The translations under genes were made by a program, and so were the position numbers. From an uncultured virus (IMG/VR IMGVR_UViG_3300017958_000005) (lineage: Duplodnaviria; Heunggongvirae; Uroviricota; Caudoviricetes): a stretch of DNA of 64,000 nucleotides. Where the stretch lies: IMG/VR virus record IMGVR_UViG_3300017958_000005, positions 1-64,000 of that record; one strand, written 5' to 3'. Positions 37,958 through 61,032 of the stretch are shown piece by piece. Numbering within the stretch: the first letter of the stretch is position 1; each line of letters begins with the position of its first letter. The notes under the pieces were generated by a model that was not told the DNA's origin, made no database searches, and worked only from the letters and a program-made list of their open reading frames with translations.

Positions 37958-37983
37958 GGGGTCGCGCTCAAAGTTTCGACCCC
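37944..37983 (+). promoter_or_regulatory. Programmed -1 ribosomal frameshift signal (A8 slippery site plus stem-loop)
   Basis: GAA AAA AAA GTC TGA; 6-nt spacer; GGGGTCG-12 nt-CGACCCC stem; the -1 frame is open into the 38104 ORF. Confidence 0.8.
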
Positions 37984-40827
37984 AACGCTGTAGATGGTGA
38001 CGAGGACGGTCTCGTTCAGGAGGGCACCCCCTTCGAGCGTCCAGCCACACCCAATGTCGCTCGCGCCCTTAGGAGCGCCACAAGTTCCGCCGGATTCGAC
38101 GGGATGAAACGCGACGATATGGCGAAAATGCGTTCAGAAGAATTCAACGAGGCGGTACAGAAACAGTTCGAAAAAGCAAAGGAACTGAGGGCCGAACTGT
38201 ACGAGAAATATCCAAAACTGGATGCGATGCTTGCAGCGCAGCAGATTGCGACCGTCACTTCAGTTCGCACCGGTCAGGACATCCGTGAAGAAGATGTCAT
38301 GGAAGAACTTCAAGATCTGCTGAAGATCGATAGCGACGAAATCGACGACCTAGCAGACATCATCGCCAGTACACGATTCAGCCAAGACCTCCTCGAAGCG
38401 GACGAAGCGCAAATGTCAATTTCTCGCGCTCGAGATTTCGTTGAGGAAACAACTGAGGACATGGGGAACATCTCGCTCGCAATCACCGACATGGAAGAAG
38501 ACGTAGAAACCGCTCTTGACCGAATCAAGAAAGAACTTGACGGCATGGAGATTTCTACAGGGCAATTCAAAGATCTTGCTGAATCCGATGACCGTGCCGA
38601 CGCAACCCGCAGGCTACTCACTGATTTGATTGACGACCGAGAAGAACTTGAGCAACAGATTCCTCAAATGGGCTACCTTCTTGAAGATTACGACGAGGTC
38701 AAGGAGATGCGCGATCAACTCAAAGACCTCGTAGATGAACTCGAAGAACTTTCAAGTGGACCTGTTGAATCTAGGGAGCGGGGACGAGATCTGCTTAAGC
38801 AAGGTTTCCTGAACGCTGACTCACTAAACACGGGGTACGACGAAGACAAGTTTCGTGAGATGCTTGGAAAGTTCCGCAAGACAAAGACTTACGAGCGTGC
38901 CACCGAAGGGATGACAATCGTCCGCAAGCGCAGTATTCCAAAATCTGAACCCGTTGCTGACAGCGACGCCGCAAGGGACATTCATGGACTTGGAAAGCGC
39001 AGCATCATCAACATCCCGGAAACGGGCGTTCAGGTCATGCTCAACGATGATCAACGTGGCGATGCTCGTCGCACCATCGCTGGTCTCAGGTCATCAACAC
39101 AAAATCCTGATGCTTTCGAGAAGATGGACGAGTGGCTTTCCGGTAAATCGCCCAATATTTCGCGAGATCAGCATGAGGAGATTTTCAACGAGTTCGCAGA
39201 TGCCGCCAACCGGGATTTGGATCTTGGAGACCTCCGACACGTCCGTGACGCGATCAACTTGGCGGCAATGTCTGAAGATGGAAAATGGAAAACGCCAAAG
39301 GCTGAGGGTGGATTCGATGGAAGACCAAAACCCGCTGGTCTGACTAAGCGCCAAAGAGCAGATTTGTTGGAGTGGGGGCAAAACGACGCAGATGACATGC
39401 TGCGTAGACGCTTCGTTGGTCTGAAAGAAGATGATGTGTCCCCCAAGGGGTGGATGATGCTCCGCAACGATTTTGGCGGTGGCATGCGTTCAGCAACTGG
39501 CGGTGGAAGCATCAATGAAACGCGTGACACCGGCAAGCGAGCACAGCGAGGTAGGCCGGTTGGCGCTGGTGATGAGAAGAAATTCAAGGGCAAACCGTTC
39601 TCGGAAGTAAAACCTGACAATTGGGATCAGTTGACTGCCGATGAGAGGTTTGACGAACTTCTTACGAATTTGCACCCTTCTAAGACCGGTCTTCGAGAAG
39701 TTGACTTCAACCGTTTGAGAAAAGAACTGGTGCTGGAGTCTCTCCGCTCAGATCAGGAAAGCGAGCGTGCTCGACGTCGGGCTCAGCGTCGGGAAGCGCT
39801 GGCGAACGTCAGGGTAAGCAAACCAACTGAGCGCCCTGCTGCTCGACCTGCTCCAGTTGCTACAACCGCTGAACAAGCCAAGAAGCAGCGTCAGCAGGAA
39901 GTCACGAAAATCGGCAACCGAGTTGCCCGTATTTCGTCAAATATTGACAAGCAGTTCGAGAGAGACGAAGAACGTGGTTTGGACCCCAACGATGAGTCCC
40001 ATAGAGATATTTGGGCGTCACTTACCGACATTTTGGAAGATAGCGATGAGTTAACCCTGTCTCAAGCAGAATCCATCGCTGCAACCCTTGACGACTACCT
40101 AGAAGAAGCATCCGGAGCAGATCTTACTGCAACCGAATCAAACAGTGTCCAAAATGCTCAGGTTCTTCGCGCAGATATGGGCGATCTGATTGACAGATAT
40201 AGGCTTGACCCGAATATCAGCAAGGGTGACAGTTCAGCGGCGGTCCGAATTGGCGGCGAAGGTGAAGAAGATGTCGCCACCACCGGCCGCTCCGCCGCAC
40301 GATTCCTTTCCGAAGGCGGAATGCGATCATTTACCTCATACAAGCCTTCCCCAACCGTCCAAGAATACGCAGAAGCACGCAGAAGCCAAGGGCTACGCAG
40401 TCAACAGGCTGGACGAACCGTAATCAATGAGGAAGCGACATTCTTCAAGGCAATCGAAGATTCTCTGGCAAAAGAAATCAGAGAAGCACGTAACGCCAAC
40501 GATTCACGAACGGTTAAGGGGCTTGAACTACTTCAGCGAATTATGCGTCGTCAAGATTCAGGCAAAGTCTCGGATCGTCGAACCAACGCCGGCGCACTTT
40601 GGGTGACGGCAGACGAAGCCGATGAGATTTTGGACGCGATGATGTTTGCCCTTGACCGACAAATGGAAACAGGCGGATCTAGGGTGGACCTGTATGCACA
40701 ATTTGTCGAAATTATCTCGGCTGCCGCAATGGGGACATTCATCAGCAAGACGACCTCGGAGGTTTCGTCACGAACCCAAGCACGAACGAACAGTCAAGGA
40801 CGACAAGTAAATATCCCGAATCAGTAG
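37951..40827 (+). CDS. Large head-associated protein, probably made as a -1 frameshift fusion to the protease
   Basis: The track ORF 38104..40827 extends upstream in frame to 37951. The extension encodes the shared tag FDPNAVDGDEDGLVQEGTPFERPA. Confidence 0.75.
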   Translation, partial: SLRGRAQSFDPNAVDGDEDGLVQEGTPFERPATPNVARALRSATSSAGFDGMKRDDMAKMRSEEFNEAVQKQFEKAKELRAELYEKYPKLDAMLAAQQIATVTSVRTGQDIREEDVMEELQDLLKIDSDEIDDLADIIASTRFSQDLLEADEAQMSISRARDFVEETTEDMGNISLAITDMEEDVETALDRIKKELDGMEISTGQFKDLAESDDRADATRRLLTDLIDDREELEQQIPQMGYLLEDYDEVKEMRDQLKDLVDELEELSSGPVESRERGRDLLKQGFLNADSLNTGYDEDKFREMLGKFRKTKTYERATEGMTIVRKRSIPKSEPVADSDAARDIHGLGKRSIINIPETGVQVMLNDDQRGDARRTIAGLRSSTQNPDAFEKMDEWLSGKSPNISRDQHEEIFNEFADAANRDLDLGDLRHVRDAINLAAMSEDGKWKTPKAEGGFDGRPKPAGLTKRQRADLLEWGQNDADDMLRRRFVGLKEDDVSPKGWMMLRNDFGGGMRSATGGGSINETRDTGKRAQRGRPVGAGDEKKFKGKPFSEVKPDNWDQLTADERFDELLTNLHPSKTGLREVDFNRLRKELVLESLRSDQESERARRRAQRREALANVRVSKPTERPAARPAPVATTAEQAKKQRQQEVTKIGNRVARISSNIDKQFERDEERGLDPNDESHRDIWASLTDILEDSDELTLSQAESIAATLDDYLEEASGADLTATESNSVQNAQVLRADMGDLIDRYRLDPNISKGDSSAAVRIGGEGEEDVATTGRSAARFLSEGGMRSFTSYKPSPTVQEYAEARRSQGLRSQQAGRTVINEEATFFKAIEDSLAKEIREARNANDSRTVKGLELLQRIMRRQDSGKVSDRRTNAGALWVTADEADEILDAMMFALDRQMETGGSRVDLYAQFVEIISAAAMGTFISKTTSEVSSRTQARTNSQGRQVNIPNQ

Positions 40828-40916
40828 AACGTCAATAAGTACTCCACAGAATAAGCCAATTTTGGGGTACAATTTGACAAACGGTCCTCACGAAAAAACA
40901 GTTTAAATACCTCTGC

Positions 40917-42479: not shown

Positions 42480-42502
42480 AGGCTGGGAAAGAGTGGCCCA
42501 CT

Positions 42503-45500
42503 ATGGCCAACATCCGGGCCGAACGAGTAATACTTTCTGATCGCGTCAACACCTATCGACGTGATTACGAAACCATTGGTGCTCTCTTTCGGATAAAGAG
42601 TGCGGTACTTGCTTCCCAAGAGAGCCTTGACCCAAACATCTCTGTAAAAGCGTTAAATCAGGATCTTCCCAAAAAAGATAAAAAAGATTCTGAGAAGCGC
42701 ACTTCTGGTACGGGAGTTGAAGAACAACTCCCCGAACTTCGCTATGCGCCTAACGGCAAACGTGGCCGTGGCGACGTACTCAAACTGCATGTAACCCCAC
42801 GCGACCTCACAACTGGCAACGAACCAAACTTTGGTTGGATTCCTGCTCCTGAGAAAAAATCCGAAGAGGAAACACGCAAACAAATGCGTGAACTGTTGGA
42901 TTGGAAGAAGCGCCGACCCAAAGTTCGCGTCAGGAGTTTTCGTGCTGACCCAAGAACAGGTCAACGAGTAGAGGATTCCGGTGTCGATGTCGAAGTAAAA
43001 GGACTCGGCAGAAAACTGAACCAGATTGTTCCCGGAGGGAATTTGTCCTCACGTGCGGCTGGGGCAGTTGGAGTACTAACTGACGCAAACGGGAAATTCC
43101 GATGCCCGCCCGGAACCCCGGCAGCCAACCAGTTCACCGATGAATTTGGTACAAACTGTTTCAAACCAGCACTCTCCTCGCGTCGACTCATTGGAGCGAT
43201 GCGTCGGTGGTTCGACAAATATGTTGAACTCGGAGAACAAATCCAACTGCTTGAAAGCATGGGCATATACGGTGTCGGGCCAGACGACCTAACCCCTCAA
43301 TACAGGCAAAACATCCGAAACATGGTTCGGGCTGCTGGAAGTGTTGCGCCAAAAGAACGCGTCCAAGAAGTTCAATCCCGAATGGACACCGCAATTGATG
43401 CCCTCCAAACACGACTTGGAACGACTCGCGACACCACAGACAATGCCGACATGTGGACCGCGCTGGCAACGCTGGCCGCCGATGAATGGCAAGACCTTGA
43501 CTTCTCAGGGATTTTTTCCGGACCGGAAGGCTGGGGTTCGTGGAACAAAAACATGCTTGCCGACCCAAAGGGTCGCACTCCTCAAGCAGCAGCAGATCAC
43601 ACTGCCGACGTTCGTAGCCAATACATCTCAATGTTTGACAACTGGGTGTCGGACGGCCCAATGCGCCAAAGGTACCGAGATGGAGACCCCGAAGCCAGAG
43701 CCCTCATTGACGAAATGGTTACCCGCCATCTGGCAGCAGAGCGTGGCTTCTTAAAGGCGATTCTTCAGGAGTATCAAGAATCCCCGGAAATCATGCGTCA
43801 AGTAAAGACGCTAGGCCGAACGCAAATCCGTGATGGCGAGGCGTTTGATGACTATTGGCGAGTAGATGGAGAATGCAGCCCGGCAGGTTTCCACCCCAGA
43901 GATGGGTTCGCTCTGAATATTGACTTCAACGCGGCAGCAGTGGCTCTGAAACCAGCAATCCAAAACGGACTAGCAAATTACACTTCTGACGGCCGCATCC
44001 TCTTATTCGATATCGACCCCAACGATGTGTCTCGCTCATTCACTTCGGAAGCCGAACAGTGGGCCGAAATCGGAAACCTGATGCAGAACACCGTCGATCT
44101 TGAACGGTGGCGAAATGTTTACGCTCAAGACCTTTCTACCGCACGCCACGGCTCAATCGAAGCAAAGGGTGTGCATATCGCAAAACATGAACTTGGTCAC
44201 GCCCGCCAGTACCAGTTCATTAAAAATGCCGTCTTGGACACCCACGCCAAAACAGGCTCCACCTACTTAGTCAACTCAACTTCAGGTCAAATTGAACGGC
44301 TCGACGTTTCTCCCGATCAGTGGACTAACCAGCAATGGGTTGATGTGGTGACGAGTCAGGTTCAACGTCTTATCCCAGAAAAGTACCTCGCCGATGGCTT
44401 CCCACCGACGTCGCTTGAGACGTTCGAAGGAACAATGCTTCACATCATGGCGGGAAGGTATTACCAAGACGAAGTTCAAAATTTCTTCAACTTGAATGAT
44501 GATGCCAAACGAGGACAGTCGGCATTGATGATGCTCGAAGGCATGACAGAATTGCGCGCGCTTCGAGATATGGGTGTCCTCATGGATCCAGAACTCGACC
44601 GGCTCGTGTCATGGATGGACGACGTTGACCCCAGAACACCGGAACGCCCTGATCCGCAAGGAGTTATCTGGCCGCCGCCGACAAGTTCAGCAATGCAAGT
44701 GTTCCAGCCGGATCCCAATGGAACGTGGGACACAATTAGCCGCACCCCGATTGAAGATCCAAACCCGTTCATTCCTGACCTTGGCGGAAAACAGGAACAT
44801 ATCGATGCCATCAATTCACGCATCTCAAGTCTCAATCGCAGTCTTCCCGACGCCGAAAGAGACCTTTTTGATCCAAGAAGCGAAGTCGTCGAAATCCAGA
44901 ACGGCAATGACGTTGTCGAACAACTGAGAAGTGGCAAAACCGCTCTCGACATTGAAAACCTGACGGTTAAGAAACAGCAAATCATTGACCGCGAAGTACT
45001 TGCTGAGGACATCGCAGCAACAGGAGAAATCGACGATGTTGGGGATCTCGAGGTCGGCGATGCCATCCGATTCAAAGGATTCAAAACACTTGATCGCCGC
45101 ATGGATGCTGATCAAGAACAAGACCTTTCGGCTGACGAAGGAAAACGGAAAGTCAACTTTGTTCTACCTAAGGGAACAAAAGGCATCGAAAAACAAAACC
45201 CGGCGAACAACGAGCCCGATCAGGTTGAGATTCCCGGCGGAGAATACGAAGTCCGTTCTGTTAACCCAGATGGAACTGTCACGCTAGTTCCCCGCAGCCA
45301 AGATGATGCCGACACCGTTGCTCGTCGCCTCATCGACAGTCTTGATGGAAGTTCCGACATAGACGACGTTCGCGATGCTGTAAGAACAGTTCAGAAACGG
45401 GCGCAGAAGTACGTCCAGAAAAAGGAAAAGATTCGTCGAGCCACGCGATCCAGCGACCCGGCCACCGCACAACGTATGGAGCGGCGCAATGCGGCGATTG

Positions 45501-48500
45501 TCGAAGAAATTCGGCAACGTGGAGCAAACCCATTCCGCGTAACCGACAGAGATATCGAACGCATCTGGGGCTCTGTAAGACCCGGTGAACGTCCACCATT
45601 CACCCGTGCCCAAGCAGAAGAGGCTTACGGACGTGCGCTCGAAACTATCGAAGATCTCCGTGGCCGACCAACAACTGGGCGATTTGGTCGAGCATTGGAA
45701 GCAACTGATGAAGTCAGAGAATTCCTAGAGACCGCCCGCCAAAGCGAAATCGGTGCGCGTATTGAACGCGCTGTAATGGAGTACCACAACGGTTTCGATT
45801 CACGCCCACGATACCGGACCGACATGGACGGCCTTCAGAGCATCATTGACACAGGGGACTCACGTGGCCTCATCCCGCCACGCGGTTCTCAGTGGGATCC
45901 GTTCCTTGATGCTGAAGATGCCATGCAAGGGTTCACTCCAGATGATGGAATTCGTCCACTCTTCGGCAATCTGCTGCACGCTGACGATGACAGCGCCATT
46001 CAACGCTACTTGGACAACATCAAGGGTTACGCCGCTATTCGAGACTCGGAGTTCTTCGATCGGGTAACTGAGTCGCCACTCGGCAAAGTCCTAACCGGAG
46101 ATGTCGAATTGGTTCTTCGTGCCGATGTCGCTCGCCGAACCGGATACGGAATTGGTGATGCACGAGGTCAAATCGCGTTTGGCGTCATGATTCACGACGA
46201 CGATCCAACGCGTGTCCGTCAAGCACTCCTGACACGTCGATTTGGCGGACCTATTGACGACACCGCAACCACAGGCGCAGCATTGGACTTCTTGCACGCA
46301 GACCTGACCGGTGACTACTCGGGAATCAGAACCCCGATGGACACCCTTTCCCTTGACGCTGGCCTCAGCGTAGACGTCAGAGATCGAACTATCCGTGGAC
46401 GAGTAGACGCAGATGCATTTATCGCAGGCGGATTCAACGGCGAAGAACTAGAAAATGTTCGAATCGGTAGTGCTTCACTGAACTACAAACGTCAATTCCT
46501 AGCACCAGCAGAAGTCGGCGCGAACAACAGCGAACTCCGCAAGAGGCTCGGTCTTGCCGGTCTCTCTCAAACTGAAGTAGACACCGTGTTTGAGTTCGCT
46601 CAAAGCGGCCGCCTCGACCTCGAATCAGCCGACTTGCTACGAATGAACAAAGCAGCACGGGAACAGGCAGACCGTTTCGCAAGAGTCGGTATCAGCACAA
46701 CTTTCACCAACGATAAGGGCATTAACGTCCTTGATGGTGCTTCGGTATCGGTAGAAACACCGGGTATTGGCCGCATCGAAGCATCCAAGCGTGCCGACGA
46801 CATCCTGCGTGTACGCCTTGAGGGAGAAATCGCCGAGCGCGCAGAAGACATTGCCAAACAAATTCGATCTGGTGTTGGTCTTCGTTCAGCAACCTCTTCA
46901 CCACGCCGAGACGCCCCAATCAATGTCGTTGACCCCTTTAGTGATGACCCATTTGGCGGTGTGGTTGACCGAGCACGGACTGTTGTCACCGACCGTATTC
47001 GCGACGAAGTAAGCGAAAGAGCAACGGCGCTTGCAACAGAGAAGATTGGCCGTCTGGGAGCCAAACTTTCCCGTCGTCAAGTTCAGAATCGCGGCATACA
47101 AAGAGTTGGCATGAACGTTCTTCAATCGGACCGAGCAGAAAATTTGCTTCGTCGGGCCGGACTTGAGACAGACGACATTGAGAACATCCGCTTTGTCGGT
47201 GAACTTGCTGCTGCCTTCGGAACTTCCGGACCGGCCGGCGTCGGATTGGTTCTCGCTCGACGCGGAAGCCGTGAAGGAATCGATTTTGGTGTTCGCAAAG
47301 CACGCGAACAAGGTTGGATCACCGACAGCCAAGCCAACGCAATCTTGCGCGCCGCAGACACCGTTGCACCAGAAGGACTTCCTGATGCGGTGACGAACGC
47401 AATTGGTGAACAAGCGCAGCGAGCCATCAACTCAGACGCAGCCGATCGTGCTAGGGAAATCGCAAGCGCCGCCGCTGAACGTGTGCGTGAACTTGACCTT
47501 GGTGATCGTGTTGGGGACATTTTTGATAGGGGTCGCACGGCCGATACTCCTGCTCTTCCGTCCACACCCAACGACCCATTCTCCGCGAATGATCCGTTCG
47601 CACCTATCTCCGGTGGAGGGCTTCGCTCTCAAACTGGGCGTTCGATTCTCGCACAGTCGAAACCAATTTTTGACATTGAATCTGATGACGACATCAACAA
47701 ATTGGCCGACGAACTGCGAACCCTTACGCAACCAGATTCAAGAAACCCTAATAACCACGTGAGCATCGTGGCAGAAGAGTTGCGAGACATTATTGGCGAT
47801 ATAGAAACTCCTGATCTTCTCACTGGTGAACCACGCAAATATGCGGAAGACATCACTGACAGCATTCCTTCATATATTGCCAACAGAGTACGCGAGCAAC
47901 TGGGCGATATGCCGCTTTCTGACGAACAGAAGCAACGCGTTGGGGAACTGCTCGCGGCATCCGAGCAGATGCGAGAACTTGACGCCTTCCGGTTTGACAT
48001 CATGCAACGGAGGACACCTGATCAAGTCACTGATACGAATGACCCATTTGGTGGTCCACCACCAAGAAGGCCAAGCGCACCACCACCAAGAAGGCCTACA
48101 GCAAACGACCCATTCTCTGACGGTCCAGAAGAAGTTCCAGAAACGCCGCCTCAGTACACCGCTGCGCAAGCACGCGAACGTCTCGATGAGATCCTTGCAG
48201 ATTCAACGATTTTTACAACCGAATTCAATCAGCGCCAAGCAACTATCACCGAGCGAGAAAATCGTCGATCCGAAGTGGAAACACGCAGGCAAGAACTTGA
48301 GTCAGTAATCAATGAACTGGCTAGATACGAAATGGTTACCGCTGACCGTCTGACAGAAGAAATTGATAGAACTGCACCAGTTGGAAAAGCCACAACCACA
48401 CAAGCGGCCAAAATCGATCCCAGACAACACGCCCCACAGCAAGGCATTGTTCGTGACCCCAAAGAGGTCCAGCGAATCGCAGAACAGACTGTCGCTCCCG

Positions 48501-49531
48501 CTGCCGACCTCACCTTGCCAGAACACCGTGATGAGTTGCGCACGCTCCTGCTCGAGAACGAAAACATCACCAAATGGCTTGGCCTCATTCAGGAACGAAC
48601 CCCCATCATCAAGGAGGGGATCGGCAACTGGATGAATGATGTTTACGCCCTTAACCCACCCCCCGCAGACTGGGACGTCAATGAAATATGGCGAGAGTCC
48701 GGAGGCTTGGTCGGAGCGCGACTTACCGAAGCGCTCATTAGAAGCAGAGGTTATGACGCGCCAGCAATGACTGTAAATGAAGCAGAAATGGATCTTCTTC
48801 TAGCCACCCGTGGACTTATGCCGATCTCACGTGGTGCTACCAACAACATGCAACGCGCAACCCTTGATTCGTCAGAAGAATTCCTCACCGGAGGCGGCAT
48901 TGACGGTGCTGGGCTCTATTTCGCTATCGAAGGAACAAGCCCCACCCGACTGGGTGGCGGACATCACGAGGCCGACGGCTACATCGAAGGCGTATCAGAT
49001 GCTTCTGTTATCCGTGGCGCGCTAAACCCCGGCGCGAAAGTAATGCAAATTTCTGCTGCAACACGAATGGCTGAAGAATACCGGTTGGAAACTCTAGGTG
49101 AGGATGTTGGTGCAGGAGGGGAAGCGAACCCTCTGATCGCCCTGAGGCGCAGCCTCGTGAACGACCCATCTCAGGCCGATTTGTTGGAAGCGTTAGATTC
49201 GGCGATTGTTGATTCAACCGACCCAGCAAAGTTTGACGGAGGATCAGTTAACGGACGGACAGTAATTCCGTTGCTCTTGGGCTATGACGCTACAATTTCC
49301 GAGACACGAGATGATAACCGCGTTGTCATTCTGAACCGCTCGGCAGCAATCCTGCAAGACACAACGTATACGGGTCAAGAGTGGGCTGAGGCAAAACCAT
49401 GGGATCGCCTCTTGGAACGCGCCAAAGTGCTTGGTGCCGACATGGACATTCCTATCGGCCTCTCACCGGAAGAAAGAACACAGTGGGTTCTTGAGAAGTT
49501 GGAAACAGAATTTGGAGCGATCAGTGGATAG
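42503..49531 (+). CDS. Giant multidomain (polyvalent) head-region protein, 2342 aa
   Basis: ORF track; HELGH zincin motif, degenerate VIP2-like ART segment, DUF3626-like segment and C-terminal ART-like domain. Confidence 0.8.
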   Translation: MANIRAERVILSDRVNTYRRDYETIGALFRIKSAVLASQESLDPNISVKALNQDLPKKDKKDSEKRTSGTGVEEQLPELRYAPNGKRGRGDVLKLHVTPRDLTTGNEPNFGWIPAPEKKSEEETRKQMRELLDWKKRRPKVRVRSFRADPRTGQRVEDSGVDVEVKGLGRKLNQIVPGGNLSSRAAGAVGVLTDANGKFRCPPGTPAANQFTDEFGTNCFKPALSSRRLIGAMRRWFDKYVELGEQIQLLESMGIYGVGPDDLTPQYRQNIRNMVRAAGSVAPKERVQEVQSRMDTAIDALQTRLGTTRDTTDNADMWTALATLAADEWQDLDFSGIFSGPEGWGSWNKNMLADPKGRTPQAAADHTADVRSQYISMFDNWVSDGPMRQRYRDGDPEARALIDEMVTRHLAAERGFLKAILQEYQESPEIMRQVKTLGRTQIRDGEAFDDYWRVDGECSPAGFHPRDGFALNIDFNAAAVALKPAIQNGLANYTSDGRILLFDIDPNDVSRSFTSEAEQWAEIGNLMQNTVDLERWRNVYAQDLSTARHGSIEAKGVHIAKHELGHARQYQFIKNAVLDTHAKTGSTYLVNSTSGQIERLDVSPDQWTNQQWVDVVTSQVQRLIPEKYLADGFPPTSLETFEGTMLHIMAGRYYQDEVQNFFNLNDDAKRGQSALMMLEGMTELRALRDMGVLMDPELDRLVSWMDDVDPRTPERPDPQGVIWPPPTSSAMQVFQPDPNGTWDTISRTPIEDPNPFIPDLGGKQEHIDAINSRISSLNRSLPDAERDLFDPRSEVVEIQNGNDVVEQLRSGKTALDIENLTVKKQQIIDREVLAEDIAATGEIDDVGDLEVGDAIRFKGFKTLDRRMDADQEQDLSADEGKRKVNFVLPKGTKGIEKQNPANNEPDQVEIPGGEYEVRSVNPDGTVTLVPRSQDDADTVARRLIDSLDGSSDIDDVRDAVRTVQKRAQKYVQKKEKIRRATRSSDPATAQRMERRNAAIVEEIRQRGANPFRVTDRDIERIWGSVRPGERPPFTRAQAEEAYGRALETIEDLRGRPTTGRFGRALEATDEVREFLETARQSEIGARIERAVMEYHNGFDSRPRYRTDMDGLQSIIDTGDSRGLIPPRGSQWDPFLDAEDAMQGFTPDDGIRPLFGNLLHADDDSAIQRYLDNIKGYAAIRDSEFFDRVTESPLGKVLTGDVELVLRADVARRTGYGIGDARGQIAFGVMIHDDDPTRVRQALLTRRFGGPIDDTATTGAALDFLHADLTGDYSGIRTPMDTLSLDAGLSVDVRDRTIRGRVDADAFIAGGFNGEELENVRIGSASLNYKRQFLAPAEVGANNSELRKRLGLAGLSQTEVDTVFEFAQSGRLDLESADLLRMNKAAREQADRFARVGISTTFTNDKGINVLDGASVSVETPGIGRIEASKRADDILRVRLEGEIAERAEDIAKQIRSGVGLRSATSSPRRDAPINVVDPFSDDPFGGVVDRARTVVTDRIRDEVSERATALATEKIGRLGAKLSRRQVQNRGIQRVGMNVLQSDRAENLLRRAGLETDDIENIRFVGELAAAFGTSGPAGVGLVLARRGSREGIDFGVRKAREQGWITDSQANAILRAADTVAPEGLPDAVTNAIGEQAQRAINSDAADRAREIASAAAERVRELDLGDRVGDIFDRGRTADTPALPSTPNDPFSANDPFAPISGGGLRSQTGRSILAQSKPIFDIESDDDINKLADELRTLTQPDSRNPNNHVSIVAEELRDIIGDIETPDLLTGEPRKYAEDITDSIPSYIANRVREQLGDMPLSDEQKQRVGELLAASEQMRELDAFRFDIMQRRTPDQVTDTNDPFGGPPPRRPSAPPPRRPTANDPFSDGPEEVPETPPQYTAAQARERLDEILADSTIFTTEFNQRQATITERENRRSEVETRRQELESVINELARYEMVTADRLTEEIDRTAPVGKATTTQAAKIDPRQHAPQQGIVRDPKEVQRIAEQTVAPAADLTLPEHRDELRTLLLENENITKWLGLIQERTPIIKEGIGNWMNDVYALNPPPADWDVNEIWRESGGLVGARLTEALIRSRGYDAPAMTVNEAEMDLLLATRGLMPISRGATNNMQRATLDSSEEFLTGGGIDGAGLYFAIEGTSPTRLGGGHHEADGYIEGVSDASVIRGALNPGAKVMQISAATRMAEEYRLETLGEDVGAGGEANPLIALRRSLVNDPSQADLLEALDSAIVDSTDPAKFDGGSVNGRTVIPLLLGYDATISETRDDNRVVILNRSAAILQDTTYTGQEWAEAKPWDRLLERAKVLGADMDIPIGLSPEERTQWVLEKLETEFGAISG

Positions 49532-49748: not shown

Positions 49749-52234
49749 GAGCAGTACTAATTGGTCAAGTTAGAAAAAACCCGGTCTACTACGACCTAGA
49801 CGGAAAAGAAACTGACGCGTTCGTTGTCGATAAAGAAAACAACGTTGTTCCGGTCAACGTTATCTCCCTCATTGGCAAAGGCCTCATAGAACCCATCAAC
49901 GACTCCGACTTCACTGACTTCTTTTGGAATGGTTCCAAAGAGAGCAGCAAAAGATGGGAAAACATTTTTATCCATCGCGTTCAAGATGTGCCAGACAAAC
50001 TGTTGCGTGGAGTTCAAATGCTTACCACTCCACCAAAAAAGAAGAATCCGGCGCGATCGAAAGCCGTTGAGGAAAAAGCGCTGAGAGCAGATGCCTACAA
50101 AGCGCTTGTTGAGAGCGAGCAGCACGAGAAAGCACTGGGTCGAAGTCTAAATCGATTCGGTGGAAGGGCTACTGCGGGTGTTCGTGGATTCGTTCGTAAT
50201 GCCCGATGGGACCCTGACGCATTGGATGCTGACGGTGATGGTTGGGTTCAGGAAGGAACACAGTTCGCTCGTCGGATAACCGGTGCAAATGTGACGAAAC
50301 CGAATAAGCCTTCTCCACCCGAAGTCAACGTTGAGCACTATCGCGCGCTTAGAAGTCAACAAAGGCGCAATTATCAGAACTATCTAAGCGGATCGATCAG
50401 TGAACGACTTGCAAAACGTAAAGCGCGATTTTACATCGACCGCATGGAGAAAGTTGACCAAATGATCGAAAGCCGTTTCTCTGACGGCAAGCGAATCAAG
50501 ACCGTTGGCGATATGCGTAAAGCGTTTGAACGTGCTCATCCGGGTTTCATTACAGGTGACAGCACTGCCGAATACTTGAATAGCGCAGATCCTGATGAGG
50601 AACTAAAAGACACGGTTAGGGAACATGGCTACATGTTTCTTTTGGCACTTATGTCGAATCCGGACCTAACGAAAGCAAACTGGAAATTCACTAAAGTTGA
50701 TCCATCCGAAGAGTTTTCTGGCGCCGCTGCTTTCAAAGGGCCGAACAAAATCGACAGACTTGGAAAAGCACGAGATTTGCCTCGAAACCGAAAAATGCTT
50801 ATCGAGATCTCCTACAAAGATGAATTTCCCGAAGCGAAATTTAGAGATGCGCAACAAATGGATGCTCGTTTACGTTTGCAACTTGAGAACACCAAGATTA
50901 TTGCGTCCATATTGAGGTCTGATTTGCCAGACGATGAGAAGCAGGAGTTTGTTCGTCGTTTTCATGCTCGCTCAACAGCATTCCACGAAATGACACATGG
51001 AAGCATGTATTTTAAAGCGTTCACAGATTCATTGGCGTTAGTCGGTTTACAGCCTGACGAAAAAACCGACGCCGATGCGATCTTGGATGAGGTGTATACA
51101 GCAATATCAGATTTAGCACCAGAAAAAGCATCCCTTCTTGCCGATCAATTCTGGGCAGAAACTATTGCCATGCCAGTTGCATTAGTCAACCGTGTCTTGA
51201 ATTATCTTATGCTTCGTTCCAGTATGGATCCAAGAGCGAAATCAACCATGCTTGATGCGATCAATGCGGATCTCACGGATGGTCAACCCAATGCCCCTGA
51301 ACCATTGCGTGTCTCAAAGAAACTCTCCGCGTTTCTTAATGACAAGCAAATCCCGAAAAATCTTGCTAAGCCAAACGATCCACAAGATACAACCTTCGAA
51401 GAAGGTGACGCTTTATCAATCAACTCGACTATGAACATACTTGCGCATCTGGTCAACGACTTGGGTTCTGGAAATGGTTACCAGAATAGGCTTCCGTGGG
51501 CTGGACGGAAGGCAGTTAACTTTGGTAAGAGCGAAGATGACATTGCCCTGAATTGGCCGCTCCTCTTGGAACATGGAATTCCAAATACAGACCTTGATTC
51601 AGAAGATGTAAAAACATTGCTTATGGCAAATATTCGCATTGGAGAAGTAATCTCGGAAGTGCTTCAATCAGGTAATCCAGACAGCATCAGGAATTTTGCT
51701 GCTATTGCGGCAAGTAACCAAACACAAATTGCTCCCGCTGTTTGGTTGGGCCTTACTGGGAATATCGCAAATCAAAGCATGCGTGAAGCATACGTTCAAT
51801 CCAGTATTCGAGGGGGAGTATCGCAACTTTGGGAAAGCGTTAAAGCAAGCGGCACGGACCGTGATCGAGGAAGAATCATTGACACCCTCGCCTTACTCTT
51901 GGGCGTATGGGACGACCTGACCCCACAGCAACGCGATCTTGCTAAGAACTATGCCGCAATGTCGGGTGGCGGTCTTTATGCTTCGTACGCTGGATATATC
52001 ACTAACTTCACGCAGTTGGGTCGAGTTTTCGATGGACTCAACTATGAACTGCTCGCCGAACTTGGCCCCTTAGCCCTATTCGGCAATGTGGCAGAAATGG
52101 CGGATGAACAGGCTGGCGGGATTCGCGAACTTGACCCATCTGAACCAACATATGAAGCATTGCAGAAATTGATTTCGTGGCTGTGGCCCGAACTCCCCTT
52201 CGCGTTAAACGGTAAAGAGAAGGCAAAGTCATGA
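49745..52234 (+). CDS. Large head-region protein with HExxH metallopeptidase motif (829 aa)
   Basis: AFHEMTHG; shared tag WDPDALDADGDGWVQEGT. Confidence 0.8.
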   Translation: MRAVLIGQVRKNPVYYDLDGKETDAFVVDKENNVVPVNVISLIGKGLIEPINDSDFTDFFWNGSKESSKRWENIFIHRVQDVPDKLLRGVQMLTTPPKKKNPARSKAVEEKALRADAYKALVESEQHEKALGRSLNRFGGRATAGVRGFVRNARWDPDALDADGDGWVQEGTQFARRITGANVTKPNKPSPPEVNVEHYRALRSQQRRNYQNYLSGSISERLAKRKARFYIDRMEKVDQMIESRFSDGKRIKTVGDMRKAFERAHPGFITGDSTAEYLNSADPDEELKDTVREHGYMFLLALMSNPDLTKANWKFTKVDPSEEFSGAAAFKGPNKIDRLGKARDLPRNRKMLIEISYKDEFPEAKFRDAQQMDARLRLQLENTKIIASILRSDLPDDEKQEFVRRFHARSTAFHEMTHGSMYFKAFTDSLALVGLQPDEKTDADAILDEVYTAISDLAPEKASLLADQFWAETIAMPVALVNRVLNYLMLRSSMDPRAKSTMLDAINADLTDGQPNAPEPLRVSKKLSAFLNDKQIPKNLAKPNDPQDTTFEEGDALSINSTMNILAHLVNDLGSGNGYQNRLPWAGRKAVNFGKSEDDIALNWPLLLEHGIPNTDLDSEDVKTLLMANIRIGEVISEVLQSGNPDSIRNFAAIAASNQTQIAPAVWLGLTGNIANQSMREAYVQSSIRGGVSQLWESVKASGTDRDRGRIIDTLALLLGVWDDLTPQQRDLAKNYAAMSGGGLYASYAGYITNFTQLGRVFDGLNYELLAELGPLALFGNVAEMADEQAGGIRELDPSEPTYEALQKLISWLWPELPFALNGKEKAKS

Positions 52235-55193: not shown

Positions 55194-58100
55194 AACAGTA
55201 CGCTTTAGTAAAGGACATGGTTAACGGCTCGTCTTACTATGGCGTTGTCATCCGTGAAAATGGGCTTACCGAATGCAAAGGTGTTTCAGGTGTAGGCGAA
55301 AAGTGGGCGGAATCTTACAACAACGCCGAAACTAAGTCCCTTGACGATGGTCTTCCCTATGGTGTGAAAATCGGAGAATTCCATGCGTTGACTCAAAGCG
55401 AGGAAATCCTTGTCGAACACATGCTTGACGGCAACACTGTTCGTTTCCCAGACAGAACTCAACTGAAGCAACTGTCTTTCCACAAAACAGACGCTAATTC
55501 AAGCCTTCCTGCCGTTTCAAACACGCCGCTTTCAGCATTTTTGATGGATGACCTGCAAACCGCAGTTGACTACAAGATTCGCGCTTTCCTCTCCGACTCT
55601 GCGAGAGCGTCAGTGATGCTGAAGTCACGTCTTGAAAGATACGGCATCAGCGACACAACTGTCGGCTTCAAGTCTGCAAGCAATAACAGTTTCCTGAATG
55701 AAGACATGTCCAGTGTGGCTCGTGGACATGGCAATCTTCGACGTGCGCTGTTGGATATCAGAGACGCAAAATCAACCTTCCTAGAAAATCATCCGGGATA
55801 TCAGGTTGGAATCGAGGAAAAAGCAATCGGGCGTAGCCTCGGTCGAGGTGCGCGCATTGGCAGACGTGCGGCTCGCGCCTTCAAGCCATACGACCCGAAC
55901 GCAATCGATGGCGACATGGACGGAATTGTTCAAGAAGGAACACCTTGGGAACGTCCAGCAGTCAGAGTTGGTGGACGTGGCGTTCGCTTAACCCCAACGC
56001 AGCAGCGGGCAAGAAGCGAAATTGCTCCAGATGTCGGGATGCGTAGCCGGACGGGTGATGGAGAAAGCATTCAGGACAGGCTTACAGCGGCGCGTAACAG
56101 TCGACAGCAAAAACTTGCCGATCGCATGCGTGAAATGGGTTTCGACGATGACAATCAAAAAGAAATCAATGACTGGCTGAGAACCTTTAACCCGGAAGAT
56201 TTCGAATATACCGACATTGATGATCTCGAGATTGAAGGTCTGACCTCGCGCCGTGGCTCATCCAGCCCTACCGGCAGCATTTTTGGTCAGCGCCGTTACT
56301 CAAGCGAGGATTGGATCGAAGGCCAACTCGATGAGGGGCCGCTTGCTGGTTCTTTCTTTGAACTTCGAACCGCACGCGATTACACCGAAAGCAACTTTAA
56401 TGATCCGGGTGAAACGCTCGGTGGTAATGATGAGTTGACTGTTTACACGCCTGATGGTGTCGTTCTCAGTTTCGAAAACGAAACATGGGAAGACTCTTTG
56501 GACCTTATCAATGTCCGCGCACCGGGCGGTGATGGCCTTCGGTCAAGAAGTCGACGCGGGGATGACGAGGACTACCCTCGTATCGACCCCGATCTCATCA
56601 ACAGGTTGCGAAATGAACGATTTGTTCCCGAGACAAGTCGTTCTGGTCGTGCACGTCAAAACCGCATCATTAACACCCCGAACGCTGATGGTGGTCCACC
56701 ACGTCGTGCAGTCCGGGAGCGCTCTGGCCGAGTTGTCCCAGAACCACCGGCACGTGATCGGAGCGGACTGCGCAGCAGGACCGGTGACACCGCCAACAGA
56801 AATGCCGAATTGACCGGTGTAGGAACAACCGTCCCCAAAGCCATGAAGGCAAACAGGAAGTTCTTCCAAACACTTGCTGCCAACGGATTCGTTTGGGACG
56901 ACAAGCCTGACACCAGTGGCAGAGTTAGGATTTTCCTACCCGACCGCATGTCCGACTGGACACTTGACCAGCCCGACAGCGTCCGTAATCAGTGGGGCAA
57001 ATTCAAACCAGCCCGCGAAAATCAGGCAGCCGGCTTCATTCACGTACACCCCGGCAAGGACACGCCACAACGTCCTGAAAACATGGCGAAACGTTTCCTG
57101 CGCACCATTTTTGGCGACACCGCATGGGACGACATGGAAGCAAACGCCAAGAAACCCGGCGATAAGCGCGGCACTGGTCGAATCGGAGTAATTCCTTCAA
57201 CTAGCACCGGCGCGACTGGATTGCGTTCCGCAACGTCTCGTGCTCGCACTCGTACTGCCTCAACGGAAAGAGTAGCAACGCCCACCACAACCGGACGAAG
57301 CCTCCGCTCGGGCCAACTGCGCAAACTTGGAAAGCCCGGTGTCGCAAGAGGTGAAAGCGACGGAAAAATCTGGGAACAATTGGATGACAACCAACGCGAT
57401 TTGTTCAAGCAATTTGCACAGGCGCGTGAAGTTCAGTTGATGCGGAATCTCACTCAGGATGCGAGAATGCGAAAGTTCCGCAACAAGATGATAGATGATG
57501 GCGATTTCGACGAAATCGACGAGGACGGCAACGTTGTGCGGAATTACAACAAACCGCTTGCTCGAAACATCATCCCATTGGCGCAACGAGAAATTGACGA
57601 TCTGCTTCGCGATGAAAAAATCACGGAGGAAACCCACGTAAAGTGGCAGAAAACTTTGGACGACATCAAGACGTTGCGCAACATGAAGGAAAGCGACAAC
57701 TACGAAGCGCTGGAGCACCTGCATCCGGCAAGTCGTGCCAAGATCATCAAGGACGCTCGGGGTGAAGATTCAAGCATTCCGGGTGTTCGTGCACTGAAGG
57801 CTGATGGTCCGTCAACGTTCTTCGGTGATCAAGCCCGTACAGCCAGTGGTCGTAGCGCCGGTAAGAATCGGAAACCGAAAAGGAAGCGGCCTTTCGCTGA
57901 CCGCATTATCACACCGAATGTTGAACGACTACAGCGTCGGGCGGCTCGTCGTCAACGAGCACAAGCGATTCGTCGGGGAGGCCTTGTTCGCGGTCAAGAG
58001 GCTGACGTTTCTGCAACGCAAAATGCTCGACGCAAACTGGCTCGTCAACTTCGTCGAGCACGACGCAGATTTAAAGGAGAACGCGACGAAAGAGCGATCC

Positions 58101-59035
58101 GTAAAATCTTTGACGAAAAGAAGAAAAATCACCCATTGGCCCGTACAAAAGAAGGCGCTCCAGAAGTCAATGACAAGTACGTTGATTACCTTGCCTTCGT
58201 CGGATCAAATATTGATAAACGTCAAAAAGGTGAACTCTCATCAGACGTTCGCGACAGCGTCCTTCGAGACCTTTGGCAAAACGGAGGATTCAACCAACGC
58301 CCCGAACTCATTTCTGCGGACGAGATGCAGGCCCTCAGCGATGCGGGTTGGCAGGTTCTACACCGAGGAGTTGACAGACTGGGAACTCAAGCACAAGCAA
58401 ACACAGATTCGTACAAGGAAGACTTGGACCGTTTCACGCCCGGCGAAACTAATCTACGAGCACATGGCGTTGGCGAATACTGGGCTGCTCCGGGGAGTGG
58501 GCACTGGGGAGGTTACGGTTCTGGCATGCTTGCCTTCATTGACCCAGAAGGCAAAAGGATCCAGAGGAATAAACTCAAGGGATTATCAGATGAATCTTGG
58601 CCAGCAATGAAGGAAATCCAAGATCTCATCGATGAACTAGGTGATGGAGTTGCACAAGGTGAAGACCCTGCAAACTTCGTTGATCAAGTAATGGAACGAC
58701 TCCGCTCCAATGGTCTCGAAGGTCTCCTCGAAAAAGATAATGAAATCATCCAAGTGGCTCGCCAATTGCTCGACAGGTACAAGGGCATGACCCCGAATGA
58801 CACAAAGCGTGAAAATACGTGGAATGCCATTCAATATATGCTCGGCCAATCGAGGCAGGCGCAATGGTCAGGCGGAGAGGGATATTGGGCTCCAATCCTC
58901 GGCTACGACTACGTCACCTCAAACGAGGGCGTGTTCCTTGTTCACAACCGAGGCAGTGTTGCTGTGCTTGACGTCGCCGAACCGCTCAGCGGCGGAGCAG
59001 CAAAGACAATTGTAGATGGCCTCAATGAAGGGTAA
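55190..59035 (+). CDS. Large multidomain head-region protein with C-terminal ART-like domain (1281 aa)
   Basis: Tag YDPNAIDGDMDGIVQEGT; six G[LM]RS-like linkers; LHRGV...HGVGEYWA...LGYD...VHNRG. Confidence 0.8.
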   Translation: MKQYALVKDMVNGSSYYGVVIRENGLTECKGVSGVGEKWAESYNNAETKSLDDGLPYGVKIGEFHALTQSEEILVEHMLDGNTVRFPDRTQLKQLSFHKTDANSSLPAVSNTPLSAFLMDDLQTAVDYKIRAFLSDSARASVMLKSRLERYGISDTTVGFKSASNNSFLNEDMSSVARGHGNLRRALLDIRDAKSTFLENHPGYQVGIEEKAIGRSLGRGARIGRRAARAFKPYDPNAIDGDMDGIVQEGTPWERPAVRVGGRGVRLTPTQQRARSEIAPDVGMRSRTGDGESIQDRLTAARNSRQQKLADRMREMGFDDDNQKEINDWLRTFNPEDFEYTDIDDLEIEGLTSRRGSSSPTGSIFGQRRYSSEDWIEGQLDEGPLAGSFFELRTARDYTESNFNDPGETLGGNDELTVYTPDGVVLSFENETWEDSLDLINVRAPGGDGLRSRSRRGDDEDYPRIDPDLINRLRNERFVPETSRSGRARQNRIINTPNADGGPPRRAVRERSGRVVPEPPARDRSGLRSRTGDTANRNAELTGVGTTVPKAMKANRKFFQTLAANGFVWDDKPDTSGRVRIFLPDRMSDWTLDQPDSVRNQWGKFKPARENQAAGFIHVHPGKDTPQRPENMAKRFLRTIFGDTAWDDMEANAKKPGDKRGTGRIGVIPSTSTGATGLRSATSRARTRTASTERVATPTTTGRSLRSGQLRKLGKPGVARGESDGKIWEQLDDNQRDLFKQFAQAREVQLMRNLTQDARMRKFRNKMIDDGDFDEIDEDGNVVRNYNKPLARNIIPLAQREIDDLLRDEKITEETHVKWQKTLDDIKTLRNMKESDNYEALEHLHPASRAKIIKDARGEDSSIPGVRALKADGPSTFFGDQARTASGRSAGKNRKPKRKRPFADRIITPNVERLQRRAARRQRAQAIRRGGLVRGQEADVSATQNARRKLARQLRRARRRFKGERDERAIRKIFDEKKKNHPLARTKEGAPEVNDKYVDYLAFVGSNIDKRQKGELSSDVRDSVLRDLWQNGGFNQRPELISADEMQALSDAGWQVLHRGVDRLGTQAQANTDSYKEDLDRFTPGETNLRAHGVGEYWAAPGSGHWGGYGSGMLAFIDPEGKRIQRNKLKGLSDESWPAMKEIQDLIDELGDGVAQGEDPANFVDQVMERLRSNGLEGLLEKDNEIIQVARQLLDRYKGMTPNDTKRENTWNAIQYMLGQSRQAQWSGGEGYWAPILGYDYVTSNEGVFLVHNRGSVAVLDVAEPLSGGAAKTIVDGLNEG

Positions 59036-59044
59036 ACTATTGAC

Positions 59045-59428
59045 ATGAGTGATACAACTAACGAATGGGGCGAAGATCTGCAAGAGGTAGAGCGTCGACA
59101 GCAATTCACCGACCGGTTTAACGAGTTGATGGACTTGACCGACTACCCGCCATTTTCAATCAATCTTGAAAAACACAACGAGTATCGCGAAGAAGTCATG
59201 GCCTACAGCGTGAAAATCTCTGAACAAATTCGTGAAAGCGACGCAATCGAAGATCGACCATTCTCAACACTTATGGCGAAATGGGAAGATGACCTTGACG
59301 AGGCCAAACTCTACAAACAGCGTTATGGTAGGGATTTTGTTGGCGCCCAGAAAGCGGCCGCAAAGAATGACGGCATCTCCATGCGTGACGTAAAGCCCAT
59401 CGGACCACCATCAGCATATAAAGACTGA
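59045..59428 (+). CDS. Small acidic helical protein (127 aa)
   Basis: ATG 6 nt after TAAACT; TGATG overlap with the next gene. Confidence 0.7.
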   Translation: MSDTTNEWGEDLQEVERRQQFTDRFNELMDLTDYPPFSINLEKHNEYREEVMAYSVKISEQIRESDAIEDRPFSTLMAKWEDDLDEAKLYKQRYGRDFVGAQKAAAKNDGISMRDVKPIGPPSAYKD

Positions 59429-61032
59429 TGAATAAAGGGGCCGCCGGGAAAGCGCGAGCACTCCGACGCGCTAAAGAATTGGGATGCACTGGTGCACACA
59501 AACATCCTGACGGCGGCTGGATGGCATGCTCCACCCATGAAGAGTACGAGCGTTTAGAAGCCGAAGAAGAGTCCGAGCAAGAAGAAAAATCCGTTCTTTC
59601 TCGTGTTCGTGAATTCCAAAGTGTTCGCGAACGAAAAGGCAAACGCCGCAAAAAGAAAAATAAAAAGAACTGGGAAAAACTCGGTGAACGTGGCGTTGTT
59701 TCAATCGACACAATCACTGGCGGCGGGCTCGTTTCGGGCGCTGTCGCTGGAAAAGTTGCATCAGCAATCCCCCGTGACGGAGAAGAAGATGTTTTTACCG
59801 ACATCAACTCAGCACGTCGAAGGGCGCGACAACTGGGATGTATCGGAGTTGCACGACGTCGTTCCACTGGCGGTCAAGTCGTATGGACTCCGTGTTCAAA
59901 CATCACCGACTATGCGCGACGCACAGGAAGCACCGCCCTTGGCCGTCGATACATAGAACGAATGCGACGGCAAGAAGCGCGTCGAATCGTTGAAGAAGAA
60001 CGCAAGCGCGGTCGCTACAAGCGTAAAATTTCCCTATTTGAAGAACTTCACGGGAAAGCGCTCGGCAGGAAAATCCGTCAGGCTGCTGCTGTTTTCGATG
60101 CCAATGCCACGGATGGTGACAACGACGGGATGGTGCAAGATGGCACCGCTTTTGCTAGACCAGCAATCCCCAAGGGTGTCGGTAAGTCGAAAACATGGAA
60201 AGACCTCATTGAGATGGAGCCCGGTTGGATGTCCGAGGCACCAAAAAACATTCAAAGAGCAGCGTCGCAGGAAGCGAGAGAAAAACACCGGAAATTACGT
60301 GTTTCTGGGCTTCGTTCGCAGCAAACCGGGTCCGGTGGTCGTGCTCAAGTGAGTCGAATCATGCAACAAGTCATGCCAGAGCATCGTGGAAAAGAGGATA
60401 GAACCCTCTATTTCATTGGCGGAACAACTGGTGCGGGGAAGTCAACTCTCACCCGAAATGACAGATTTGGGATACCGGGGCCTGATGCTGCTGCACATAT
60501 TGACCCTGATGAGATTAAGGCCGGTTTGGTTGGCTGGGATAATGGCCGTGGTGCTGGTGCCGTTCACGATTCTTCACGACGAGTTACCGATCACGCCATG
60601 AAAGCAGCGGCTGAGGAAAAAACCGATATGGTCGTTCAGGGTACTGGCAAGAGGACTGAGCACCTTCAAATGGCTCGTCAAAATGGATATGCAACTGTTG
60701 GGCACTTTGTTCATATTCCCGGTGACGAAGCAGATCGCCGGATTGTTCAGCGAAATGCTGACAATAGGCAGAATGGTGGAGCGATAATCCCGGAATGGTT
60801 TGGGAGCCAGATTGGTCGTGAACTACAGCCGATTGTTCCTCGTCAAATTACATCCGGATTATTTGATGAATTCTTCTTGTGGGATAACAGCGGAGACACA
60901 CCCGTTCTGATTGCTAAGCGCACCAAAGACGGAAATTACAACATCAATGATATTGATGCTTTCAATGATTTCTTTAGTCCGACCGGAGCCGAGTACGTCA
61001 AGAACTACTGGGATAGTAAGTCAAGTAGTTAA
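59428..61032 (+). CDS. Head-region protein: two DUF3721-like Cys/His repeats, shared tag and zeta-toxin-like P-loop kinase (534 aa)
   Basis: AKELGCTGAHKH...WMACSTH and ARQLGCIG...WTPCSN; GGTTGAGKST, HIDPDEIK, RIVQR, LWDNS. Confidence 0.85.
   Translation: MNKGAAGKARALRRAKELGCTGAHKHPDGGWMACSTHEEYERLEAEEESEQEEKSVLSRVREFQSVRERKGKRRKKKNKKNWEKLGERGVVSIDTITGGGLVSGAVAGKVASAIPRDGEEDVFTDINSARRRARQLGCIGVARRRSTGGQVVWTPCSNITDYARRTGSTALGRRYIERMRRQEARRIVEEERKRGRYKRKISLFEELHGKALGRKIRQAAAVFDANATDGDNDGMVQDGTAFARPAIPKGVGKSKTWKDLIEMEPGWMSEAPKNIQRAASQEAREKHRKLRVSGLRSQQTGSGGRAQVSRIMQQVMPEHRGKEDRTLYFIGGTTGAGKSTLTRNDRFGIPGPDAAAHIDPDEIKAGLVGWDNGRGAGAVHDSSRRVTDHAMKAAAEEKTDMVVQGTGKRTEHLQMARQNGYATVGHFVHIPGDEADRRIVQRNADNRQNGGAIIPEWFGSQIGRELQPIVPRQITSGLFDEFFLWDNSGDTPVLIAKRTKDGNYNINDIDAFNDFFSPTGAEYVKNYWDSKSSS

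Follow-up and report, generated by a model that had tools for sequence, protein, structure and literature searches.

In phage T4, the unrelated head-packed proteins IPI-III and Alt share a short peptide, the capsid targeting sequence (CTS), which is coupled to a prohead-protease site (PMC9026906). According to that account, the CTS occupies the first ~10 residues of a propeptide, lies before the site, works with the gp21 protease and the scaffold core, and is removed by the prohead protease (PMC9026906). Here, we analyzed a 64,000-base stretch of DNA (the window) from an uncultured tailed phage (IMG/VR record IMGVR_UViG_3300017958_000005), in which four otherwise unrelated proteins carry the same 24-residue tag. 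An initial annotation of the window had proposed that this tag is a capsid-targeting or ejection-sorting signal functionally like the T4 CTS. The tag is real and widespread, is without a Pfam or NCBIfam model, and follows a clear position rule. It differs from the T4 CTS in that it lies 12–25 residues after a K↓A site (the arrow marks the predicted cut), would be retained, is predicted to fold over 24–30 amino acids (aa) with a DxDxDG loop, and goes with an S78 (HK97-type) protease. Membership of the T4-type CTS class was considered and rejected, as a CTS stands at the extreme N-terminus, ahead of the site, and is lost on maturation, whereas the tag follows the site.

Capsid maturation in HK97 by an S78 protease offers another parallel, since a site of K↓S-L/I-G form lies at the delta-domain boundary. 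HK97 gp5 is cut after Lys103, and its new start is Ser-Leu-Gly-Ser. The phage studied here differs in that such sites also occur across very large non-capsid proteins, with the tag after each. In giant phages of the SPN3US/phiKZ type, the cut motif is A/S/G-x-E. In these phages, many proteins inside the head are substrates of the prohead protease and enter the cell by ejection (PMC5694885, PMC7411985, PMC10052503). The likeness lies in propeptide-bearing ejection proteins processed by the prohead protease; the protease family and cut motif are different, and the parts of these reports used here describe no shared, retained N-terminal mini-domain (PMC5694885, PMC7411985, PMC10052503).

Polyvalent proteins, as characterized in the relevant parts of Iyer et al. 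(2017, PMC5512222), are long multi-effector proteins found in late or virion gene contexts and processed before or after packing. They share payloads with the tag-bearing proteins (zeta-toxin-like kinase, ART, and nucleases), but their processing is ascribed to an in-built MPTase peptidase (PMC5512222), whereas the joints seen here consist of a prohead-protease-like site plus the tag. That paper makes no mention of calcium, EF-hand, or DxD (PMC5512222). Several unrelated effector domains per polypeptide were seen in relatives (P0237, P0044, and P0048); in the window, p12 alone has a named effector domain, Zeta_toxin.

The tag and its four copies

The motif of the tag is [FWY]D[PA]xAxD[GA]DxDGxVQ[DE]GTx[FW]xR. 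Translation of the window gave all four peptides exactly as first quoted (Table 1). The window is the first 64,000 bases of a 78,820-bp contig, and six-frame scans of the whole contig, both with a regular expression and with a profile built from 106 tags, found these four copies alone. Their profile E-values ranged from 8e-13 to 2e-17, and the next best match in the contig had an E-value of 0.67. The D, D, D, G, and V of the loop are invariant across the four copies.

At the nucleotide level, the copies share 39–52 of 72 positions in pairwise comparison. Between two copies, 4–11 of the 13–19 codons for identical residues differ, so conservation is at the protein level, as had been proposed. 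BLASTP matches among the four tag-bearing proteins (E ≤ 0.01) were restricted to 29–73 residues around the tag, which bears out the view that the proteins are otherwise unrelated. The N-terminal parts of p6, p10, and p12 and the C-terminal part of the protease showed no mutual similarity below E 0.01 except for the site itself. In the window proteins, basic stretches of low complexity flank the tag on either side. All four tags lie inside a 25-kb block between the portal and S78 protease genes on one side and the capsid gene on the other, in the first (p3), fourth (p6), eighth (p10), and tenth (p12) open reading frame (ORF) after the protease.

Protease-like sites before the tag

Copies 2–4 are preceded by the sites EKALGR, EKAIGR, and GKALGR, which lie 25, 22, and 12 residues upstream, respectively. 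The initial annotation had placed each copy about 10–25 aa after a lysine site, and this holds for these three copies; for copy 1, the site that it named (KSLRGR) was wrong, and ASK↓SIFG is the one that aligns with relatives. A K↓[AS][LI]G site upstream is coupled to the tag, which, in keeping with the earlier expectation, would stand near the new N-terminus if the site is cut.

The capsid protein of the same phage has the sequence QFK↓SIG at residues 94–99, at the delta-domain boundary, where a conserved [ST][ILV]G begins. This [ST][ILV]G was present at the capsid boundary in 11/11 proteins (that of the window and 10 relatives), with P1 being K in 5/11 and R in 2/11. The cargo proteins have K↓A-L/I-G and the capsid protein has K↓S-I-G, the same kind of site in one phage, and the cargo sites therefore appear to resemble the maturation site of the capsid.

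Position, fusions and payloads

We examined tag positions in the best 150 of 968 profile matches, which contain 176 tags by the strict motif; 51 of these 150 proteins are shorter than 250 aa. Tags fall into two positional classes: 95/176 start within 45 aa of the N-terminus, and 81/176 start at least 60 aa in. Within 40 aa upstream of the internal tags, K[AS] occurs in 64/81 cases, compared with 31% of random windows from the same proteins. Native N-terminal forms of the type MA.R.LR.EPYDPD... resemble the predicted post-cut ends K↓ASRRPLRPEPYDPD....

Among the large tag ORFs from viral contigs, 7/28 are in-frame protease fusions, each with a portal gene directly upstream, and the open frames of the protease in whole records span 1015–4433 codons. 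Two portal fusions, P0044 (3015 aa) and P0048, have 3–4 variant tags each, most of which have K[ASG] a few residues upstream as judged by eye. In the effector chains of these two proteins, the modules are parted by the tag variant PRDGDGDGxIYDGTPxERPAP.

The domains attached to the tag are varied. P0044 combines the portal with GNAT, P0048 the portal with ART-PolyVal, and P0237 RNase_T with DUF3626 and NUDIX. Over all proteins, the attached domains comprise S78 protease, portal, Zeta_toxin, ART-PolyVal, RNase_T, NUDIX, DUF3626, DUF7178, HipA_2 with PI3_PI4_kinase, GNAT, and HTH/sigma-70 region 4. Leaving aside the protease, the portal, and the two DUFs, these payloads, together with PG_binding_1, are typical of delivered effectors. 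PG_binding_1 was found in small proteins with two tandem tags, and the tag also occurs at the C-termini of ORFs of 80–170 aa. Its flanks are often very basic.

Distribution in databases

A degenerate DNA pattern for DGDxDGxVQ[DE]GT matched at least 122 stretches in IMG/VR viral contigs, with 109 distinct in-frame contexts. Among 185,579 cellular species, each represented by a single genome, the same pattern matched 12 stretches. Of these, 11/12 are on assembled environmental contigs with full tags, and the sole isolate match (Chromatium) is without the flanks. From these searches, the tag appears to be nearly virus-only, and the cassette to which it belongs is present, unannotated, in hundreds of uncultured phages. 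Residues outside the search pattern were also kept (aromatic-x-P-x-A before and [FW]-E-R-P after, with the R invariant and the A nearly so); the loop columns D/D/D/G/V in the 106-row alignment are fixed by the search pattern itself. Tag-bearing phages come from marine, salt-marsh, and fresh waters.

The profile search that had been recommended with the initial annotation found the tag to be widespread: of 1.84 billion cluster representatives, 968 proteins matched at E ≤ 0.001, and 310 of them reached E ≤ 1e-10. With a longer profile, built from 44-residue natural stretches, 7,999 candidates from a set of 5.8 billion were scored, and 345 proteins matched at E ≤ 1e-6. Among the 120 matches listed, all were unnamed or 'hypothetical protein' save one 'response regulator'.

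Searches of tag segments against Pfam (to E 10) and NCBIfam (to E 1) returned no family. The family phrog_7924 (function unassigned) matches four small tag ORFs of other phages through the tag, and it gave no match to the four tag proteins of the window at E ≤ 0.001. A small ORF at locus L003 and the protein P0186 match isolate phages only outside the tag, in searches whose low-complexity filter may mask it. The ESM Atlas gave no usable match to the tag, and the tag was not found in a full-text literature search of limited coverage.

Gene neighborhoods in other phages

We searched 20 tag-bearing records, picked chiefly for length from the 122 loci and many of them fragments, for the three head families S78, PF05065, and PF04860. 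Each family was matched in 11/20 records, and at least one of the three in 14/20. Nine records have both the protease and the capsid gene, 16–52 kb apart; 26/35 of their tags lie between the two genes, in a block that makes up ~26% of the DNA. This supports the association with head genes that had been suggested from the window. Of the nine tags outside the block, six are in large ORFs 2–13 kb past the capsid gene. At three loci, large tag ORFs are flanked by neck genes on one side and the tail sheath gene on the other. Some small tag ORFs fall in the protease–capsid interval (L005 and L022), others directly after the capsid gene (L028, L032, and L036) or immediately ahead of the gene for the major tail or sheath protein.

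Several features of these neighborhoods are recorded as separate observations. In a group of uncultured phages of 66–137 kb, giant ORFs take up 16–52 kb from the prohead protease gene to the capsid gene, and this region often opens with a protease fusion of up to 4433 codons; the group consists of records G006–G013 (L017, L029, L061, L067, L071, L044, L021, and L064) and the window (36257–62500). The share of the genome that this group gives to likely head cargo is unusual. Small tag ORFs stand next to 2-oxoglutarate (2OG)-Fe(II) oxygenase genes at L011:3666-4331, L038:3244-4457, L056:3244-4457, and L007:3-560; this adjacency may be due to chance in variable islands, or may hint at hydroxylation of the Asp-rich loop. 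Some contigs that carry small tag ORFs have glycosyltransferase genes beside the genes for the capsid or tail (L005:2-1575, L022:5229-6035, and L054:1-981).

Fold and calcium-loop character

We modeled a 32-mer containing the tag on its own with AlphaFold2, using the 106-row alignment. The mean predicted local distance difference test (pLDDT) score was 87, with 25/32 residues at or above 90, and the model has one short bridge and no helix. In a model of a tandem-tag protein, the same local bridge appeared in each tag, and the linker to the PG-binding domain was disordered. As the tag is predicted to fold alone and has basic low-complexity flanks, it is likely to be an independent unit rather than a piece of a larger domain.

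The DxDxDG core that had been compared with Ca2+-binding loops is indeed present, and because of this loop the tag probably binds Ca2+. Like EF-hand loops, it combines D-x-D-x-D-G with a hydrophobic residue at loop position 8. It differs from the EF-hand in that it is without flanking helices and has Thr rather than Glu at position 12 and an acidic residue at position 10. A further difference is that an aromatic residue, Pro, and Ala are conserved ahead of the loop, as is [FW]-E-R-P behind it. Pfam EF-hand models did not match the tag at E ≤ 10. A profile search of the PDB found nothing significant, the best match being the EF-hand loop DALDGDGDGFV of Rab11-FIP3 (E = 2). Foldseek against the PDB and a wide structural search with the 32-mer model gave no match; a model of this length is probably below what such tools can handle. 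Complex prediction with the capsid protein, Ca, and the tag, run without controls, gave a score of 0.00 and a mark of 0.32, which speaks neither for nor against binding.

Possible role of the tag

The tag would be on the retained side of the cut and is present in protease and portal fusions, so its role is most likely one after cutting. On balance, we consider it a little more probable than otherwise that the tag is a retained N-terminal handle of processed head-cargo modules. Under this proposal, the tag would be a self-folding mini-domain of ~24–30 residues around the DxDxDG loop, and the K↓[AS][LI]G-type site, a short basic linker, and the tag would together form a portable cassette that opens each mature module of the head-associated cargo proteins. 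The phage of the window would have four such modules, namely the protease-fused part (p3), p6, p10, and p12. Cargo would enter the head by fusion to the protease, by fusion to the portal, or by means of its own N-terminal part. Inside the procapsid, the S78 prohead protease would cut K↓A/S, as at the capsid delta domain, so that the mature module would begin with the basic linker, followed by the tag. The tag could then hold the freed cargo in place or lead it out at infection, perhaps in a Ca2+-dependent manner. It may also have the ejection-sorting role originally proposed.

Several observations weigh against the handle proposal. The case for it is an argument from position, being drawn from where the tag stands. 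Within the tag block, p4, p5, and p9 have no tag by the profile. Among internal tags, 17/81 have no K[AS] within 40 aa, and some 'N-terminal' tags may stem from truncated metagenomic gene calls. The record G004 (48.7 kb, 100%-complete) has the tag but no match to S78, PF05065, or PF04860. Small tag ORFs lie beside non-structural genes at 5/15 annotated loci (L004, L007, L010, L011, and L019) and at 2/5 others (L049 and L066), with genes for ribonucleotide reductase, primase, thymidylate synthase, and 2OG oxygenase as neighbors. In addition, tblastn of the cassette and of the tandem-tag protein against 50,697 isolate phage records found none, in a search whose low-complexity filter may hide the tag. 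The initial annotation had named two findings that would speak against a head-related signal, wide occurrence in non-virion proteins and membership of a larger fold. The first was borne out in part, as the tag is widespread and some of its small ORFs lie beside non-structural genes; the second was not, as the models point to a separate unit.

The capsid-targeting function proposed at the outset appears unlikely to us. In this scenario, the tag would load the separately encoded p6, p10, and p12 by binding, within the procapsid, to the capsid protein or its delta domain, to the portal, or to the protease. Such a function would account for the cassette being the sole element common to the four head-block proteins, for the 26/35 tags in the protease-to-capsid block, and for the small tag ORFs between the protease and capsid genes or after the capsid gene. 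However, the tag stands after the cut site, unlike the T4 CTS as outlined in the account cited above, and it would be redundant in the protease and portal fusions, which need no targeting signal. Being on the retained C-terminal side and occurring where targeting is unneeded, the tag is unlikely to be a removable targeting peptide of the T4 kind. The tag also occurs in the complete G004, which has no match to the three head families, and in p6, p10, and p12 the N-terminal parts of 129–211 aa before the site could themselves be the targeting piece.

The tag could also be a generic Ca2+-stabilized knob without a sorting role, acting as a structural staple or as a cation-dependent contact with DNA or the host envelope. 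The DxDxDG core and the often very basic flanks would suit such a knob, as would the tandem tags, the C-terminal tags in ORFs of 80–170 aa, the adjacency to PG_binding_1, and the non-structural neighborhoods. A staple would not, however, be expected to follow an N-terminal or post-site position rule or to be concentrated in the head and neck module, and we regard this explanation as decidedly unlikely. It is very improbable that the tag is a cleavage determinant, in which the folded tag would be an exosite or spacer presenting K↓A/S to the S78 protease: K[AS] is enriched before internal tags (64/81 against 31%) and an S78 protease was found in 11/20 tag records, many of them fragments, but the capsid's own site and the p5 site are without a tag, the 95/176 tags at native N-termini have no site before them, and G004 has the tag but no S78 match.

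If the handle proposal is correct, it has a practical consequence. Head-carried delivered proteins, such as anti-defense factors, toxins, polymerases, and regulators, are hard to recognize from sequence, and a short and highly specific, nearly virus-only cassette would mark them, together with their cut positions, in metagenomic data. The tag is small, seems to fold by itself, and tolerates any payload; should its role be confirmed, phage engineering could use it as a loading handle. A more elaborate form of the handle, which we rate as speculative and improbable, is a calcium-switched N-terminal leader. It would be folded in the Ca2+-rich particle, dock the effector near the portal or the DNA, lead it N-terminus-first through the tail, and let go in the low-Ca2+ cytoplasm. 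If this were true, one short signature would predict the set of injected proteins and their processing sites across much of the uncultured phage world, including the clade that gives 16–52 kb of its genome to cargo.

Copy 1 and a candidate frameshift

Copy 1 translates as first quoted, but it lies outside any conventional ORF. It is in frame 1, upstream of the first ATG, GTG, or TTG (38104) of the open frame ending at 40827, and starts 18 nt past the stop (37955–37957) of the frame-2 protease ORF. It can be reached only by a −1 shift from the protease ORF at the A8 run, which would yield ...ASK↓SIFGETEKKSLRGRAQSFDPNAVDGD.... In the aligned cut site for copy 1, ASK↓SIFG, the K is encoded at 37922–37924 in the protease frame.

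In relatives, a single frame runs through the protease, the site (EKALGR), the tag, and the C-terminal part. The single-frame relative P0140 (2268 aa) is collinear with the two reading frames of the window: aa 14–558 of the protease ORF correspond to its residues 5–454, p3 aa 3–33 (the tag) to 472–502, and p3 aa 353–930 to 1606–2266. The A_AAA_AAA heptamer, the 6-nt spacer, and the 7-bp GC-rich stem are all present; a 73-nt stretch there folds no better than shuffles (z −0.5). The same A8 run was found without an indel in contigs of 4/4 runs (two RNA and two probably DNA libraries), which are all labeled salt marsh metagenome, may be the source of the contig, and are hence not independent. We consider it likely that a programmed −1 shift or transcriptional slippage joins the protease to p3. 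Alternatively, translation of p3 begins at 38104, which would make copy 1 an untranslated relic. The candidate −1 shift would set the ratio of free protease to protease–cargo fusion.

Gene map of the window

Table 1. Features of the window between the portal and capsid genes (positions are those of the window).
Feature	Position	Strand	Basis and details
Portal protein gene	34179..36164	+	PF04860 E 3e-48; phrog_2662/phrog_12
Prohead protease ORF, 566 aa, frame 2	36257..37957	+	Peptidase_S78 aa 29-176; DUF6321 aa 186-257; conserved C-terminal part ending ASK↓SIFG
Likely protease site K↓SIF(G), protease–p3 product	37922..37933	+	Aligns with EKAL(GR) of relatives
A8 run (read as A_AAA_AAA by the protease frame), where a −1 frameshift or slippage may join protease ORF to p3	37944..37951	+	
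7-bp stem GGGGTCG/CGACCCC, 12-nt loop, 6 nt past A8	37958..37983	+	In minimum-energy fold
Tag copy 1, FDPNAVDGDEDGLVQEGTPFERPA	37975..38046	+	Translation and profile
p3 open frame, 955 codons, first canonical start 38104	37960..40827	+	Acidic helical N-terminal part; C-terminal 580 aa homologous to C-terminus of protease fusions of relatives
p5, 2342-aa ORF	42503-49531	+	Site-like VKGLGR at 42995..43012, without a tag after it
p6, 829 aa	49745..52234	+	129-aa N-terminal part; EKALGR 50126-50143; tag copy 2 50207-50278; HEMTH at aa 414
p10, 1281 aa	55190..59035	+	211-aa N-terminal part; EKAIGR 55817-55834; tag copy 3 55889-55960
p12, 534 aa	59428..61032	+	DUF3721 aa 8-37; GKALGR 60052-60069; tag copy 4 60094-60165; Zeta_toxin-like kinase aa 323-449
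HK97-type major capsid protein, N-terminal delta-like domain	61184..62500	+	PF05065 E 1e-46; alignment with 10 relatives; QFK↓SIG 61466-61483

The contig is estimated by CheckV to be 49% complete. The left half of the window contains tail fiber and baseplate genes, nucleotide and recombination genes, and the large terminase gene. From the protease to the capsid gene there are about nine ORFs, including ones of 955, 520, 2342, 829, 651, 1281, and 534 aa, and nearly all are without a family; p12 is the sole tag protein of the window with a named effector domain (Zeta_toxin). A tail-fiber-like ORF (1–2874, − strand) starts with an Mtd_N (major tropism determinant) domain. A search of the contig for a reverse transcriptase, prompted by this fiber, found none.

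The nearest isolate relatives of the capsid protein are those of actinophage myoviruses, at ~50% identity; no tag was found in two stretches from the actinophage relatives Cantare and Gray. The HEMTH sequence of p6 (HExxH; aa 414–418, 50984–50998) suggests a zincin-like metallopeptidase; no family match was found. The N-terminal part of p12 (59428–60051) has two Cys/His-rich stretches, the first being DUF3721 and the second, recognized by eye, lying near aa 125–150. This part precedes the protease-like site, so cutting may release it as a small metal-binding protein of its own. Directly after the capsid gene lies a homologue of staphylococcal nuclease (SNase; phrog_452, 62750–63115).

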